From a virus (taxonomy: Duplodnaviria > Heunggongvirae > Uroviricota > Caudoviricetes), in IMG/VR virus record IMGVR_UViG_3300045988_154997, positions 37,871 to 101,870 of that record: a DNA stretch of 64,000 nt; one strand, given 5' to 3'. This document shows positions 3,117 through 39,463 of the stretch, one piece after another (the first letter of the stretch is position 1; the number at the start of each line of letters is the position of its first letter). The notes under the pieces were generated by a model, which was not told where the DNA came from, made no database searches, and saw only the letters and a program-made list of their open reading frames with translations. Position numbers and translations under genes: made by a program.

Positions 3117-3362
3117 TTATAATGTACTCACCAGAGCGGCGAATTCCGTATAGCCACCGATAGATTCGCCATTTACGAACACCTGCGGTATGGTCTCCAC
3201 CGGCTTGCCAACCAGGGCGCTCAATTTCTCTTTGTCTATCCCAGCAGACACAATATCGATGTATTCGTAATCGCCAAAACCGTGACCGTGAAGCTGCTTC
3301 GCCAGCTCGACCGCACGTTTGCAGTATGAGCAGTTATCTCGTCCATAGATAGTGATCGTCAT
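3117..3362 (-). CDS. glutaredoxin (GrxA/NrdC-like)
   Basis: 81 aa; CSYC active-site motif at the N-terminus; KPVETIPQVFVNGESIGGYTEF closely resembles E. coli Grx1 from memory. RBS GAGG 7 nt upstream. Confidence 0.85.
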   Translation of the reverse strand: MTITIYGRDNCSYCKRAVELAKQLHGHGFGDYEYIDIVSAGIDKEKLSALVGKPVETIPQVFVNGESIGGYTEFAALVSTL

Positions 3363-3502
3363 TGCTTTGCCTCGTTATGCGCTTCGCTGGGGAACGTGTA
3401 GCGGTTAGTGAAAGAGCTGAGGTGGTAGTGCTCGTGAATGTATGGATTTGACTTCTGCACCTGACGAGATGCGCGACGCGCATGTTTACATTTATTTCCC
3501 AT
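3359..3502 (-). CDS. small basic hypothetical protein (47 aa), translationally coupled to glutaredoxin
   Basis: ATG at 3502 preceded by AAGGA. Stop overlaps the glutaredoxin start as ATGA. Track ORF 3359..3577 is probably an over-extension. Confidence 0.35.
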   Translation of the reverse strand: MGNKCKHARRASRQVQKSNPYIHEHYHLSSFTNRYTFPSEAHNEAKQ

Positions 3503-3558
3503 ATTGAGTCCTTTCAAGTGAGTATCCGAAAGAACTATACAGTTAACGTGCGTAAAAA

Positions 3559-3587
3559 GTAAGTGCTTACCTATCATTTATTGATAG
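3559..3587. promoter_or_regulatory. dispersed motif copy: GTAAGtgCTTAC palindrome + CTATCA-N5-TGATAG palindrome
   Basis: Contains the 16-mer GTGCTTACCTATCATT (3563-3578), identical to 9685-9700. Sits upstream of the plus-strand ORF at 3652. Confidence 0.4.
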
Positions 3588-3651
3588 AAGAATAGCCGCC
3601 TGTCGTGTGATACTATTTACAGAACTAAACTGGCTTTCCACAAGGTGTAAA

Positions 3652-4473
3652 ATGACTATCCTTGAAAATCCTGATGCGAATGTTGAATCTGTTTATAGTC
3701 TTCATCCAACCACGTTGTTTCATTTTACAAAAAACGAAGATGCTTTCTATAGCATATTGGCTGAGAAATATTTTAAACCATTTCTTGCTCGCGAGGAAAT
3801 AAGAGGAGTCGGGGGACGCAGGAGGTTTGCAGTACCAATGGTATCGTTTTGTGACATAAAACTATCACAAATCAGAGATCATAGCGGAAAATATGGAGAA
3901 TTCGGTCTTGGGCTAACTAAGTCTTGGGCGGAAAAGAAAGGTCTACACCCAGTTCTATATATGAATAAGAGTAGTGAAATATTTTCTAAATACAATGCCA
4001 GAATTCGACTTATTAAAAATAAGTTGGTGCCGCTTTGGAAGGCTAGAGGAAATTTAGATACCAAAAACAGAATAGAGTTTGAGAAATTGAAAGCAGAATA
4101 TTCTGATCTATATAATTTACTGCGTTATATGAAAAATTACAGAGGCAAGCTAGAGCGAAAAGATAATAAAACAATAGAGAATTATATATATGCAGACGAG
4201 AAAGAGTGGCGTTATGTGCCAGCTCCTTTTATTGGTGATTTATGGCCTAGTCTGAGTTTGGAGCGTGTTATCACTTCTGATGACAAAGCAAAAATTAGCT
4301 CAAAATTTTCAAAGTTTGGCATTGATTTTGAGTTCAATGATATAAAATATATACTTATACCTAAAGAACAACATATCCAAAAGCTAATTAACTTTCTCTC
4401 AGGTTTAGATGGATTTGAATCTTCAATTATTAGCAAAATTCTGACCATGGATAAAGTAAAGCAAGATTTTTAA
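3652..4473 (+). CDS. hypothetical Abi-like protein (N-terminal LFHFT motif)
   Basis: ORF 3607..4473; first ATG in frame at 3652 (MTILENP). N-terminal LFHFTKNEDAFYSIL recalls the HFT start of AbiGi-type proteins (from memory, unverified). AT-rich. Confidence 0.45.
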   Translation: MTILENPDANVESVYSLHPTTLFHFTKNEDAFYSILAEKYFKPFLAREEIRGVGGRRRFAVPMVSFCDIKLSQIRDHSGKYGEFGLGLTKSWAEKKGLHPVLYMNKSSEIFSKYNARIRLIKNKLVPLWKARGNLDTKNRIEFEKLKAEYSDLYNLLRYMKNYRGKLERKDNKTIENYIYADEKEWRYVPAPFIGDLWPSLSLERVITSDDKAKISSKFSKFGIDFEFNDIKYILIPKEQHIQKLINFLSGLDGFESSIISKILTMDKVKQDF

Positions 4474-4499
4474 TTTTTGGTTTAACGGGAGCCTAATTA

Positions 4500-5711
4500 G
4501 TGTCAATATTTTTAAGCGAAAAGGAAATGCAAAATTGGATAATTGACAAATTATCTGATCAAGATGGATTATATAATTCAATCATCAATATTGATAAATT
4601 AAATGAATTTAATCCGAAAAGACCCGAAGAGAAAAAAATTAAGGAGAGTTATCAGTTTTGTTTAAAGAACATAACATTGTTACATTTAATGACAGATGAT
4701 GAGAATATCTCAGCAACAAAATCTGAGATATTAAGACCTGATGTCGTTGCTTATTCAACAGAGAATGAATCCTTAGTTCTTATTGAGTTAAAAAATTTTT
4801 CAACACCAACAAGGGAAGCTGGAACTGAGCTAGTGGCATATGCTGCGGAACTAAAAAGTTACTTGTCATACTTGTCTGATGGAGATATTACCAATGTACT
4901 TATATCACCTGACTGGCCACCTTTGGTTAGACACTTTATTTTTAATATGATCGTGTGGCAGAAGAAAAACTTTCTATGTTTAGAACCTTGCTATGATTTA
5001 CAAGGTAACGTATCACTTACTCCTTTAGATATTAATAAATTAGTTATTGCGGAAGAAGCACTCAAGTTCTCATTTCGTCATCTTGGCGGGTTTCATATAT
5101 GTTTGTATGATGATGAAATGTATAATCAACCGACTTCCACTTCTCGTTTACATTCGAAATTGAATGTTATTAAAGCCAGCATGGCAAAAATGTCCTCAGA
5201 CGGTGAAAAGACTAATAGCCATGGGTTTGCTATTTTATGTAGAAATTTGAACGAGAGAACTTTAGCACCATATACGATTACTCTAGTTAATGTTTCTGCG
5301 TTTTCTTCCATAGAGCGATACTTTCATTCGCCACAAATATCCAATGCTTCTCAACTCCCTAGAATAGGACAAAAAATTTATGACATTTACACTCATTACC
5401 AACCATCAGGTTTTGGGGCATCAATGTCGAAAATTTACAATTCTGGGAGGGCATATTTAGAAAAAATTAATTGCAAGCCGCGGATCGAGGTTATAGACAC
5501 CTGGGATGTATTGCAAGTACATACACATGCGCCTTATATGGAAATGGTTCATATTGAAACGTGGGGAGTTTTTAAAGAAAAATTGATTGAAGGTCTAAAT
5601 GAATGTTATGAGGATGAATATTACACACCTGATTTTAACGATGTAGATTTTTGCATGGTGTGTATTGAATCCTTAATTGACCAGAATTATGAATTTATAA
5701 AACTTTTTTGA
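4500..5711 (+). CDS. PD-(D/E)xK nuclease-like protein (putative)
   Basis: 403 aa. Motif ILRPDVVAYSTENESLVLIELK fits the PD...(D/E)xK nuclease core. GTG start at 4500 with GGGAG 9 nt upstream; 26 nt after the previous gene. AT-rich. Confidence 0.5.
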   Translation: MSIFLSEKEMQNWIIDKLSDQDGLYNSIINIDKLNEFNPKRPEEKKIKESYQFCLKNITLLHLMTDDENISATKSEILRPDVVAYSTENESLVLIELKNFSTPTREAGTELVAYAAELKSYLSYLSDGDITNVLISPDWPPLVRHFIFNMIVWQKKNFLCLEPCYDLQGNVSLTPLDINKLVIAEEALKFSFRHLGGFHICLYDDEMYNQPTSTSRLHSKLNVIKASMAKMSSDGEKTNSHGFAILCRNLNERTLAPYTITLVNVSAFSSIERYFHSPQISNASQLPRIGQKIYDIYTHYQPSGFGASMSKIYNSGRAYLEKINCKPRIEVIDTWDVLQVHTHAPYMEMVHIETWGVFKEKLIEGLNECYEDEYYTPDFNDVDFCMVCIESLIDQNYEFIKLF

Positions 5712-5713
5712 AG

Positions 5714-5736
5714 AAAAGGGGCCGAAGCCCCTTTGA
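5714..5736. terminator. rho-independent terminator hairpin (AAAAGGGGC-CGAA-GCCCCTTTT), bidirectional
   Basis: GC stem with 4-nt loop and flanking A/T runs. Ends the plus-strand cargo operon and the minus-strand tRNA transcript. Confidence 0.6.
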
Positions 5737-5805
5737 ATATTGCGCTGAAAAAAAGTGTTGCTAGGATGTTAGCAAGCTATGGTTAAGAACGTCTGCCGTA
5801 ATTGT

Positions 5806-5895
5806 CAATCACAGCGTTGAGCGGTCTGGTTTATGTTAGCGGAGTCTTAATCGAGTTGATTAAAAGGCCAAACCGCTCAACGCTGTGTCTGGCGG
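5806..5895. repeat. long inverted repeat (15-bp arms ACAGCGTTGAGCGGT / ACCGCTCAACGCTGT, ~56-nt spacer)
   Basis: Read directly. Arms resemble those of a second IR at 6712-6833. Lies next to the 3' end of tRNA-Ser. Confidence 0.5.
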
Positions 5896-5899
5896 AGAG

Positions 5900-5986
5900 T
5901 AATGGAATCGAACCATCATCGTTTGCACAATGGGACGATTTTCAAGACCGCTTGAGCACCATGCTCCCTACTCTCCGGCCGTTGTG
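5900..5986 (-). tRNA. tRNA-Ser (anticodon UGA, type II) - tentative isotype
   Basis: 87 nt; reverse complement starts GGAGAGT, ends GGTTCGATTCCATTACTCTCCGCCA. Anticodon loop CTTGAAA. Long variable arm. Anticodon stem has two G-U pairs. Confidence 0.6.
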
Positions 5987-6200
5987 GTGGCCGGTACTGA
6001 ATCTCCGGCATACGGTGCAGCCAATTAGGACTACGGACGATCACCGCTCGCGAAAGGGAAGATTTGCGGCCGCATTTCCCTAACATCCAAGAAAGCTATC
6101 GCATCAGTCTGCGAATCCACCACAACGGTAAGATCACTACCTTTCGACCAGTCATTGTGCACATGAACGACGATTAACCGTAATGATCTTATCGTTGTAT

Positions 6201-6276
6201 TGGTGCCGGTTAACGGACTCGAACCGCTGACATCCTGCTTACAAGGCAGGCGCTCTACCAACTGAGCTAAACCGGC
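6201..6276 (-). tRNA. tRNA-Thr (anticodon UGU)
   Basis: 76 nt GCCGGTTTAGCTCAGTTGGTAGAGCGCCTGCCTTGTAAGCAGG...GGTTCGAGTCCGTTAACCGGCACCA; perfect acceptor and anticodon stems; CCA encoded. Confidence 0.8.
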
Positions 6277-6280
6277 AATT

Positions 6281-6367
6281 TGGTGGGGAGTGATGGAGTC
6301 GAACCACCCGAGTCGCAATGACAGTAGATTTACAGTCTGTCCCGCTACCTCTACGGACTAACTCCCC
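6281..6367 (-). tRNA. tRNA-Tyr (anticodon GUA, type II), atypical anticodon stem
   Basis: 87 nt GGGGAGT...ACAGA-CTGTAAA-TCTAC...GGTTCGACTCCATCACTCCCCACCA; resembles E. coli tRNA-Tyr but the two outer anticodon-stem pairs are C-A / A-C. Confidence 0.65.
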
Positions 6368-6372
6368 TAAAT

Positions 6373-6447
6373 TGGCGATGGTGGGTGGATTCGAACCACC
6401 GACCAGTTGGTTAACAGCCAACTGCTCTACCGCTGAGCTACACCATC
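6373..6447 (-). tRNA. tRNA-Asn (anticodon GUU)
   Basis: 75 nt GATGGTGTAGCTCAGCGGTAGAGCAGTTGGCTGTTAACCAACTGGTCGGTGGTTCGAATCCACCCACCATCGCCA; canonical cloverleaf. Confidence 0.8.
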
Positions 6448-6637
6448 AATTCAGCACTGCCAGTATTTATTACTCAACAGTGCCAATCGCGGCGGTGTTA
6501 GTTTCTGCCAGGAAACACACCGCTACTGGCACTTTCCGTTAGTGCCAGACGTTTTCGACTTCGCTCAATAGAAGGCAAAATCTTTAAGTAGATGATGTTT
6601 CTGAGGACAGCACCTACTTTGTAATTTATACAATGTG

Positions 6638-6654
6638 ATGTATGGAATCATTTG
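6638..6654. promoter_or_regulatory. 17-mer GATGTATGGAATCATTT (copy 1 of 2)
   Basis: Identical 17-mer at 7650-7666; shares its 13-mer with the operator palindrome at 1825-1857. Confidence 0.4.
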
Positions 6655-6711
6655 TTGTGAAAACAGGCACTAATGGCAACAGTGGTTAAACCTATACAAC
6701 AATCCTGTCTT

Positions 6712-6833
6712 CACAACGTTGAGGCCACTACTCCGATTGAATGTTTGCCCAACATGTTACATATCAACGCTCGCCGGTATCTCTGTGAATAGAACCTTAG
6801 AATTGATAAAAATGTAATGGCCTCAACGTTGTG
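6712..6833. repeat. long inverted repeat (15-bp arms CACAACGTTGAGGCC / GGCCTCAACGTTGTG, ~92-nt spacer)
   Basis: Read directly; arm sequence is related to the 5806-5895 IR. Confidence 0.5.
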
Positions 6834-37800: not shown

Positions 37801-39463
37801 CGGTCGCCATCGTGGCAAAGGTGCTAACCATCTGGCTCCCAGCGCCAACTACCCCCATGATCCCTGCTCGCATCAGTTTGAACGCAACCATCGCGGCCAC
37901 GACCTTACCGAGATTAATTACCAGCTCTTGGTTCTTTGCTAACCATTGAGCAAGCTGACGCAACCCATCGATTGCCGTTGTTAACCCCGAACCTAAAGAA
38001 TTGGCAAACGAAATCCCTTCGGCGCTATTCATGATTGAAGCCAGTTCTTTCATCCCCTTCGATAGAGAATCCAGATATCCGGCCTGACCAACCCGATCAG
38101 CAAATAACGTGAATGACGTCTGAAGTTGCGCCAGCGCACCTGTGTAGGTTTGCATCATGTCTTTCGCTGCGTTCTCATTCTCCGCACGCAGACCAACAAA
38201 CATCAGAGACAACGCCTGTTTTGCCTCAACCGTACCGCTGGCAACGGCTTTAGTCAGTTCCCCCATAGTGATGCCTGCGGCGTCTGCCATTGCCTGCATC
38301 GCGTTAGGAACGGCTTCACCTAATTGCTGACGTAGCTCTTCCATTGACACAACGCCCTTACCGGACATCTGCTGAACGGCCACAGCCGCACGTTTCAACA
38401 GCTCACTATCACCACCAAAACGAGCAACGGAGTCCACCAGCGCCTTCAGAGAACCATCGGTTGGATCTAAGCCAGCAGAACGAAACTTCACGAAGGAGTC
38501 TGTTAACGCCTGCATCGCGAACGGCGCATTTTGAGCCATGTCTACGATGTACCTCATATCATCAGCGGCAGCCTGGCCCGGGTTGGACTTCTCCTTATTC
38601 AACCCTCGAAGCATCACCCGCATACGTTCCATTTCGGCCGCAGCTTCAACAATAGGCTTCTGCCACCCAAACATGATGTCAGTAACCGTTCTGGCTGCAT
38701 CTCCGATCTCGCCAAGCAGGAAAATGTTGCCACGAAGGCCAGAGAACATACCTCCTTCGTTACTTTTACCGCTATGGCCAGAAGCGCCGCTACGCCGCCC
38801 GCTACCACCATCGCCACTTCCAGATGTACGAACGCGTACCGGCTTGCTAATCAGTTGCTGACGTCCGATAACTTCGTCCATCTGCTCACGAACCTTTTTC
38901 AGTCCCTCGGCAGCCTGACTCGTTGTGACACCCCAATTACTGAGTCGCTTCGTCGTGGTATTAAGGCGCGTATTCATGCCACTCACGGACGCAGAGGCTT
39001 CTTTGACCTCCGTACCAAAGCGGCTTGCGCTTTTGCTTGCATAGGTCGCCCAATCAGAGAAATCATTTAGCTCTGATTGCACTTTACGTAATGACGCGGT
39101 GAGTTTATCTACTGAAGAAGTTGTCGTATCGACGCGCTCAATCAGGGCTTTAAGACCAGAATTGAGGCTGGTGATGTTGCCACGCATTTTACGCGTAGCA
39201 TCTGAAGCAAGCTCAAAACCGGCAGCTACATCCTGTAGTTTATCTGCCGTAGAATCGAGCTTGCTTTCCAGAACGCCAATGATACGGGCGACCGAACCCA
39301 AAGAGCGTTCAAAGGTTTGGATTTTTTGAGCAGGCTTTGTTACCTGCTCACCAAATCGAGTAAGCAGTTTCCCCGCACGATCGATTGACGCTGTAAACTG
39401 TTTGTCTTCCAGCGACAGGATAAACTCTACGTTTTGTGACATTCCCTTGTCATCCTCTGCCAA
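34889..39463 (-). CDS. H: tail tape measure protein
   Basis: 1524 aa, long helical/coiled-coil central region, hydrophobic Gly-rich segment; position between G-T and M. Confidence 0.85.
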   Translation of the reverse strand: MAEDDKGMSQNVEFILSLEDKQFTASIDRAGKLLTRFGEQVTKPAQKIQTFERSLGSVARIIGVLESKLDSTADKLQDVAAGFELASDATRKMRGNITSLNSGLKALIERVDTTTSSVDKLTASLRKVQSELNDFSDWATYASKSASRFGTEVKEASASVSGMNTRLNTTTKRLSNWGVTTSQAAEGLKKVREQMDEVIGRQQLISKPVRVRTSGSGDGGSGRRSGASGHSGKSNEGGMFSGLRGNIFLLGEIGDAARTVTDIMFGWQKPIVEAAAEMERMRVMLRGLNKEKSNPGQAAADDMRYIVDMAQNAPFAMQALTDSFVKFRSAGLDPTDGSLKALVDSVARFGGDSELLKRAAVAVQQMSGKGVVSMEELRQQLGEAVPNAMQAMADAAGITMGELTKAVASGTVEAKQALSLMFVGLRAENENAAKDMMQTYTGALAQLQTSFTLFADRVGQAGYLDSLSKGMKELASIMNSAEGISFANSLGSGLTTAIDGLRQLAQWLAKNQELVINLGKVVAAMVAFKLMRAGIMGVVGAGSQMVSTFATMATAIQTPFNLGATAVTRFNRAARMGLAPIPSLIFAIRGAITGLKGAFAGLTAFIAANPIGAAFTVATVAVAGLITYMTMLRSETSKVVDEIRKIPEAMTAAKRAQMADRAEKLEKQILADQRALKNGEGVNYVSNSAGVITHKESKADIEARLKKNQEEYQKITGTIALGDGAVAKRLAKEAAESQIEKIRAENQIFAATFVKARQEALDKIQKINDDGSLSDDEKNKLLAPLRETVNKSYLEPAQKLVDSLSSRKNATEKQIATLNDQLEKAKKDGNTEQIQKLQGSIRGYQEHLEAVAQELTQAEFERDNAAKTGKGVMSNQGTVLGLGTTDKAAQKALAQYMRNQMDSATYQRTLPDGTPMMDFEGKPIIGPKQLKTQLNLQKASSASSLEKMSDEERAAAIAALTKAREQDAAAAEKAAQRSANASQRAAKKEQAAQQKLAAGYQKALDKADQLMGQMGESSKATVSFDQSLRDTTKSLTDLANAVPNEFITQEMIDKAKKRLEDLKNATPEYREMFNRRNVEQMISTWAPEADSIISAGYTPSREDKVADFEGTYNRNLKALIELRDKASDPKVVALYTKKINQLIAAGNTALIKETGTATQKLALEYENLAEQIENTWTDLFSGLTDALTDFVINGKMSFSSLSQSILKDITNMVVKSQITLPLMNMLGMGTTAAGSSQSGNLLTGVASAVANQGVRMGNTVNGDKSVGEATKETSSSVTGLGQTTQQTTSAIGTATNAIGSWVSGLFDSTEAKDAETKAVKDSIFSMQNLSSVTGALSAAFAMLGANASGSGNKWLSFGATVASGLVSAWAGGGFDSVTSSSAKTATSSVADGTKGIPAIPKFANGGIFGKDGVIPLRAYQKGGIANSPQLALFGEGSMNEAYVPLPDGRTIPVTLSTDGMSGGGNVLSPVSIEINVHSDGSTTESGDTESIWNNAAQRMKAIALETIAQEKRPGGSLNPNTQRN

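Follow-up and report, generated by a model that had tools for sequence, protein, structure and literature searches.

The window analyzed here, 64,000 nucleotides (nt) of the IMG/VR virus record IMGVR_UViG_3300045988_154997 (positions 37,871 to 101,870), represents part of an Escherichia coli SSU5-like phage-plasmid of ~112 kb. Two adjacent genes on its plus strand are the subject of this study. Gene 1 (3652-4473, ATG to TAA) encodes an AbiGi-family protein of 273 amino acids (aa), and gene 2 (4500-5711, GTG to TGA) a 403-aa protein that consists of an N-terminal PD-(D/E)xK domain and two alpha/beta domains. The initial annotation, made from the DNA sequence alone, had proposed the pair as an undescribed defense or abortive-infection module; its coordinates for both open reading frames (ORFs) and the spacing of 26 nt between them were verified. 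NZ_CP100547 and NZ_CP104116 are among the plasmids that match region 3300-5900 at 100% identity, and the flanks of this region match the Escherichia phages Cyrano and CMS-2020a as well as hundreds of Klebsiella, Escherichia, and Enterobacter phage-plasmids.

Both genes are more AT-rich than their surroundings, as had been noted before. The GC content is 33.9% for gene 1, 33.3% for gene 2, and 33.8% for the two-gene segment, compared to 45.6% for the window, and the segment has the lowest GC content among 619 sliding 2.1-kb windows, more than 3 standard deviations under the mean. The similar GC and GC3 of the two genes was considered as a sign of joint origin and rejected, since enterobacterial members of both families have 30-36% GC everywhere. 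Base-level alignments place the left break of backbone homology at ~3579, where the backbone ends with '...TTACCTAT', and the right break at 5703-5714, where every relative compared regains homology. The AT-rich 2.1 kb from ~3580 to 5713 are accessory cargo in a variable slot between grxA and tRNA-Ser, in agreement with the initial placement of the pair between the integrase gene (623-1726) and the tRNA cluster (5890-6447).

The flanks of the slot are common to ~665 plasmids, 18 of which carry the gene pair. The pair occurs in 19 of 5,426 complete E. coli genomes, every time on a plasmid. In Cyrano, the slot is almost empty. In pWP4-S18 (L086, 1931-3118, plus strand) it holds a gene for a 395-aa protein with a weak putAbiC match, and in an O169:H41 plasmid (L087, 1674-2462, minus strand) a gene for a 262-aa protein that matches PADLOC PDC-M68A (6e-25) along with models of a CBASS-type endonuclease effector and of the SduA N-region. 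This nuclease-effector-like gene is accompanied by one encoding a 184-aa protein of no known function. Klebsiella phage-plasmid relatives carry AbiGi alone in this slot. Judged by these gene contents, the grxA-to-tRNA-Ser slot behaves as a defense hotspot of SSU5-like phage-plasmids.

The LFHFT motif, which is present in the gene 1 protein, had led to the suggestion that this protein is AbiGi-like, and profile comparisons bear this out. The protein matches Pfam PF10899 (4.1e-25, 89 bits, with a cutoff of 22.4 bits) and the PADLOC AbiGi model (5.5e-47), with residues 13-273 aligned onto model positions 11-260 of 260, and it is homologous to genuine lactococcal AbiGI (pCI750 type) along its full length (hhalign probability 99.7%, 249 columns). 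RefSeq already names the product 'AbiGi family'. The score against NCBIfam NF042957 is 52.2 bits, below the equivalog cutoff of 300 bits, and identity to AbiGI is ~30%. By these sequence comparisons, gene 1 is a distant subfamily of AbiGi. Residue H24 shows a conservation of at least 90% within the subfamily, and lactococcal AbiGI has Asn in place of the LFHFT histidine.

Structural modeling provides moderate evidence that the core of the gene 1 protein is ADP-ribosyltransferase (ART)-like, with a DarT-like fold. E183-x-E185 and S65 are invariant, and the ART-type motifs (H/R - S/Y - E or ExE) lie on predicted strands, as expected. In the literature, PF10899 has been placed as an ART-like family near DarT and DUF2971; the latter was matched weakly by 5 of 39 AbiGi-family members. 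Against a DarT-like reading, a profile search of PDB sequences with the gene 1 family returned no sequence-level match to any solved structure, DarT included. The model also differs from DarT in a long helical hairpin at residues 110-157 and an additional C-terminal domain and, in contrast to DarTG, no DarG-like macrodomain antitoxin was found in gene 2 or in neighboring genes.

Lactococcal AbiG has been shown experimentally to be an anti-phage system that is triggered by the phage major tail protein and causes abortive infection by acting on phage transcription or replication (PMC13064643). Pfam labels AbiGi as 'antitoxin' and AbiGii as 'toxin', in the sense of a Type IV toxin-antitoxin pair. 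The 'antitoxin' label is a prediction that finds no support in the behavior of lactococcal AbiGi and AbiGii, which are each non-toxic in E. coli (PMC3985639). In the metagenomic protein P0090 (411 aa), an HNH nuclease domain at the N-terminus is naturally fused to a full AbiGi domain.

Gene 2 is the more novel part of the pair. Its protein contains the sequence RPDVVAY...LVLIELK, in which the initial annotation had seen a PD-(D/E)xK core, and this assignment agrees with both the modeled fold and residue conservation. The N-domain (approximately residues 1-165) is confidently modeled with a restriction-endonuclease-like alpha/beta core fold. Across 35 sequences, no variation was seen at D81 and at the E96-x-K98 pair, nor at E7, the glutamate of the N-terminal helix; further invariant positions are P80 (of P80-D81), R105, G108-T109-E110, and D127/D129. 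Weak matches of the N-domain to YhcG_C, HSDR_N, and BsuBI/PstI recur. Fold and conserved D/E/K residues place the N-domain in the PD-(D/E)xK nuclease superfamily, and nuclease activity is predicted on this basis. The C-terminal ~240 residues form two alpha/beta domains that gave no informative match and have no recognizable relative, and a profile search of PDB sequences with the gene 2 family returned no match.

No curated family in Pfam, PADLOC (PADLOC-DB 2.0), or NCBIfam matches gene 2. The sole family match is phrog_30092, whose function is not known, and HSDR_N_2 was found below threshold. The members of phrog_30092 presumably come from prophages; 50,697 phage records searched by tblastn with gene 2 gave no match. 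An exhaustive profile search found at least 454 representatives of the family at 50% identity; 54 clusters were obtained at 90% identity. The family ranges over Enterobacterales, Bacteroidota, Planctomycetota, Leptospirales, Alphaproteobacteria, and one lineage of the candidate phyla radiation. A literature search on the RefSeq accessions of both proteins found no papers. The earlier description of the module as undescribed applies to gene 2, whose family is unnamed, but not to gene 1.

A large subfamily of 700-750 aa (P0220-P0318) contains the whole 400-aa gene 2 module (hhalign probability 100%, 380 columns) followed by a C-terminal extension. The equivalent residues D92, E107, and K109 are invariant in 30 long-form relatives, and the catalytic residues of the family are invariant across all contexts, these long forms included. 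The extensions (~330 aa) belong to one family in 61 of 63 cases and have no match in Pfam, PADLOC, or PDB; a UreE-like match was insignificant. One long form that was inspected (L093, 1651-3828) is a solo gene adjoining a helix-turn-helix regulator.

In its fold and the E...PD...ExK residues, the gene 2 N-domain resembles solitary PD-(D/E)xK nucleases (NucS/Shedu-like proteins, the HsdR N-domain, YhcG, and Type IV/Mrr-like enzymes), and gene 2 homologues likewise occur as single-gene cargo in defense-type hotspots. However, gene 2 does not match DUF4263 (SduA), Mrr, or another curated model in Pfam or PADLOC, and the nuclease domain is N-terminal in gene 2 but C-terminal in SduA. Gene 2 further differs from these nucleases in its C-terminal 240 residues and in the conservation of its entire 400 aa as a single module, also within the 700-aa forms. 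Gene 2 was also considered as a divergent AbiGii. This was rejected because no AbiGii model of Pfam, PADLOC, or NCBIfam matched it and because comparison with genuine AbiGII was negative (best BLASTP E 0.49; hhalign probability 0.05%).

The initial annotation treated the gene pair as one defense module, and this part of the proposal did not withstand a check of co-occurrence across genomes: outside one plasmid lineage the two genes were not seen together, an outcome that the annotation had itself named as refuting. Hidden Markov models (HMMs) of both families were searched against 84 retrieved loci, with GTDB genomes, IMG/VR, and metagenomes among the sources. Both genes were found together in only two of these loci, both from the same plasmid lineage. 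No AbiGi ORF was present within 5-6 kb in ~76 other gene 2 loci, nor was gene 2 present at any of six loci of close AbiGi homologues. In PLSDB, AbiGi homologues occur on 92 plasmids and gene 2 homologues on 25, and the overlap seen consists of the 18 plasmids of this same lineage. Fusions between AbiGi and gene 2 were absent among 318 proteins, and the extension of the long forms is not AbiGi. The adjacent arrangement of the two genes on the plus strand is known from ~18-19 near-identical E. coli plasmids only, and a conserved two-gene module was rejected because co-occurrence is limited to this one near-clonal lineage.

Relatives of gene 1 at 60-73% identity are solo genes in five different contexts, the same slot included. 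In Klebsiella phage-plasmids, AbiGi (64-65% identity) stands alone in the orthologous slot, and its stop codon lies 15 nt from the backbone hairpin described below. On the IncF plasmid pETN48 (L096, 3001-3822), a solo AbiGi gene (71% identity) is convergent with the AVAST type 4 gene avs4 (4361-6819), and the same Avs4-side solo context was found on related contigs (L031/L032). Among the matches listed by tblastn, the 71%-identity variant occurs on ~20 further E. coli and Salmonella plasmids. A solo relative in Serratia adjoins a CI/S24 repressor gene, and prophages likewise hold solo AbiGi genes, among them a more remote one (38% identity) in the lysis region of an E. coli prophage.

Upstream of some AbiGi homologues (38-40% identity), at a distance of 38-95 nt, lie unrelated genes of ~280 aa whose function is not known (2599-3462 in L089-L091; 2588-3406 in L092). 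These upstream genes are possible alternative AbiGi partners; those in L089 and L092 are unlike each other and unlike gene 2.

The most frequent setting of gene 2 homologues (~21 loci) is at the end of P2-like prophages, where the solo gene follows int at 1-12 nt within the C-int operon. An identical protein accompanies the same prophage at different host sites and therefore travels with it. A minor defense hotspot between int and att has been described in P2 (PMC13586616). A gene 2 homologue was also found in the transfer region of an integrative conjugative element (ICE). Some chromosomal loci adjoin a Type IIG restriction-modification system, AbiEi/Eii, BovA, PDC-S05, IetA, PD-T4-6, RmrA, or MADS, and others adjoin housekeeping genes. 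The immediate neighbors of gene 2 homologues are S24 peptidase, HNH, PrimPol-D5, CHAT, or unknown proteins, and no recurrent partner was found across taxa.

The operon begins with a cargo-specific 5' leader on the plus strand (3580-3651), which starts where backbone homology ends. A regulatory motif of the operon had been proposed at 3559-3587. The 6-5-6 palindrome in this stretch, CTATCAtttatTGATAG (CTATCA-N5-TGATAG, 3571-3587), is real, but 3559-3579 is backbone that is common to plasmids without the two genes. The palindrome is probably not a dedicated operator, since it spans the backbone/cargo junction with its left arm in the backbone and is not conserved upstream of Klebsiella AbiGi. 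A better promoter candidate is the TGTGATACTATTT block (3606-3618), which is kept upstream of both the E. coli and the Klebsiella AbiGi genes and includes the extended -10-like sequence TGTGATACT (3606-3614, plus strand). A generic promoter scan gave no excess over chance (7 found vs. 9.8 expected). Gene 1 is preceded by the Shine-Dalgarno sequence AAGGTG (3642-3647, plus strand). The spacer between the two genes (4474-4499, plus strand) contains the Shine-Dalgarno sequence GGGAG at 4487-4491, and no hairpin, terminator, or detectable promoter was found in its 26 nt. This operon layout suggests that genes 1 and 2 are co-transcribed.

Downstream of gene 2, a hairpin terminator had been predicted at 5714-5736. 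The GC-rich hairpin AAAGGGGC-cgaa-GCCCCTTT (5715-5734) does exist, with an 8-bp stem, a free energy of -13.2 kcal/mol, and z = -2.3, but it does not belong to the operon. Cyrano (no cargo), pWP4-S18 (other cargo), and the Klebsiella relative (AbiGi only) all have the identical hairpin, and the minus strand, on which it lies downstream of the tRNA genes, offers the better T-tract. For these reasons, we assign it to the backbone and reject it as a terminator dedicated to the operon. The hairpin forms the right border of the cargo slot and probably acts as a terminator in both directions, shared with the tRNA cluster.

The integrase gene annotated in the window lies on the minus strand, as does the cluster of tRNA genes (Ser, Thr, Tyr, Asn). 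This set of four genes has a ~220-nt gap after tRNA-Ser; Cyrano (L085) is annotated with three, without Tyr. A second cargo gene, an AT-rich ORF of 307-329 aa with 36% GC (1935/2001-2924, plus strand), occupies the slot between the integrase gene and grxA and has no match in Pfam, PADLOC, PHROG, or NCBIfam. It was found in just 6 of the 18 pair-carrying plasmids and has distant relatives on small Acinetobacter plasmids. In Cyrano and pWP4, this slot holds a different gene encoding 184 aa. A small ORF on the minus strand (3359-3577) is what remains of phoH, namely its 5' end. At this position, Klebsiella relatives (L034/L035) encode a full-length PhoH of 258 aa, which indicates a deletion adjoining the cargo slot in the E. 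coli lineage.

We somewhat favor the reading that the locus holds two autonomous single-gene anti-phage candidates that have become stacked in the same hotspot and share a promoter. According to this reading, the gene 1 protein would most likely modify its target, a nucleic acid or a protein, by means of NAD+ once a superinfecting phage is sensed, and this modification would block phage gene expression or replication. The gene 2 protein, as a self-contained nuclease of ~400 aa, would most likely cut invading DNA in a Type IV-restriction-like or Shedu-like manner, by analogy to these enzymes, and its two C-terminal alpha/beta domains presumably recognize or regulate. The family of gene 2 can reasonably be regarded as a new nuclease-type defense candidate; the family of gene 1 is known and is present here in a partner-less form.

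Several features of the locus weigh against two independent genes. A spacing of 26 nt without a detectable internal promoter or terminator is what a true two-component system would show, canonical AbiG consists of AbiGI and a 397-aa partner 2 nt downstream, so that the layout found here mimics AbiG, and the HNH-AbiGi fusion P0090 is a hint of joint action between AbiGi and a nuclease. The alternative would be a genuine two-component system of the AbiG type, in which AbiGi serves as the shared sensor or enzymatic core, the PD-(D/E)xK protein has replaced AbiGii, and both proteins act together in abortive infection. It would account for the tight operon with a separate Shine-Dalgarno sequence in its spacer, for its similarity to the lactococcal arrangement (AbiGI 293 aa, 2-nt gap, AbiGII 397 aa), and for the existence of the fusion. 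Effector swapping is common in defense systems, and the tightly linked, unrelated ~280-aa upstream neighbors of some AbiGi homologues would also fit. We nevertheless consider such a system unlikely, albeit the strongest competitor. The pairing is confined to one near-clonal plasmid lineage, the closest AbiGi relatives are solo in all five contexts, more than 70 loci hold gene 2 homologues as solo genes without a recurrent partner, and the upstream neighbors in L089 and L092 are related neither to each other nor to gene 2. Likeness to lactococcal AbiG extends to the bicistronic operon, a second gene of ~400 aa, and the location on a mobile element. In contrast to AbiG, however, the second gene here shows no relationship to AbiGII and encodes a nuclease fold, while AbiGII has no fold matches according to a 2026 review (PMC13064643), and close relatives of gene 1 occur without any partner. 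An AbiGi-family protein is present, but an adjacent AbiGii-family protein was not found and the NF042957 equivalog cutoff was not reached.

A role other than phage defense appears quite improbable. The genes could mediate plasmid addiction or post-segregational killing, or gene 2 could be a DNA-processing or anti-restriction nuclease that serves the element itself in replication, recombination, or competition with other plasmids. The 'toxin/antitoxin' names in Pfam and NCBI and the nature of the element as a low-copy plasmid prophage are compatible with addiction, yet the lactococcal proteins are individually non-toxic in E. coli (PMC3985639), and ~97% of related phage-plasmids lack the genes, which are therefore not needed for maintenance. 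Gene 2 homologues do adjoin integrases and occur inside an ICE transfer region, and many neighbors of chromosomal homologues are housekeeping genes; across the gene 2 contexts, however, no common recombination or replication partner was found, and lactococcal AbiG is experimentally anti-phage (PMC13064643). A more far-reaching idea, which we regard as doubtful, is that AbiGi represents a modular ART-like core with interchangeable nuclease partners, namely AbiGii, the fused HNH domain in P0090, and the PD-(D/E)xK protein here. The operon would then be a newly assembled AbiG-type system, and the gene 2 family would independently constitute a new, phylum-spanning single-protein nuclease defense found in the P2 int-att hotspot, ICEs, and phage-plasmids.

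The locus cautions that a tight operon in a hotspot is, by itself, no evidence of a multi-gene system. The proteobacterial AbiGi subfamily is usually solo and has a predicted DarT-like fold, which challenges the database label 'antitoxin' and may suggest an enzymatic mechanism for the long-unexplained AbiG system. The gene 2 family is invisible to PADLOC-DB 2.0, Pfam-A, and NCBIfam. If gene 2 protects its host, it would supply the int-att hotspot, recently noted in P2-like phages, with a concrete gene, and if it is anti-phage, a widespread single-gene nuclease system, present in many phyla and carried by P2-like prophages, ICEs, and phage-plasmids, would join the defense catalogue.

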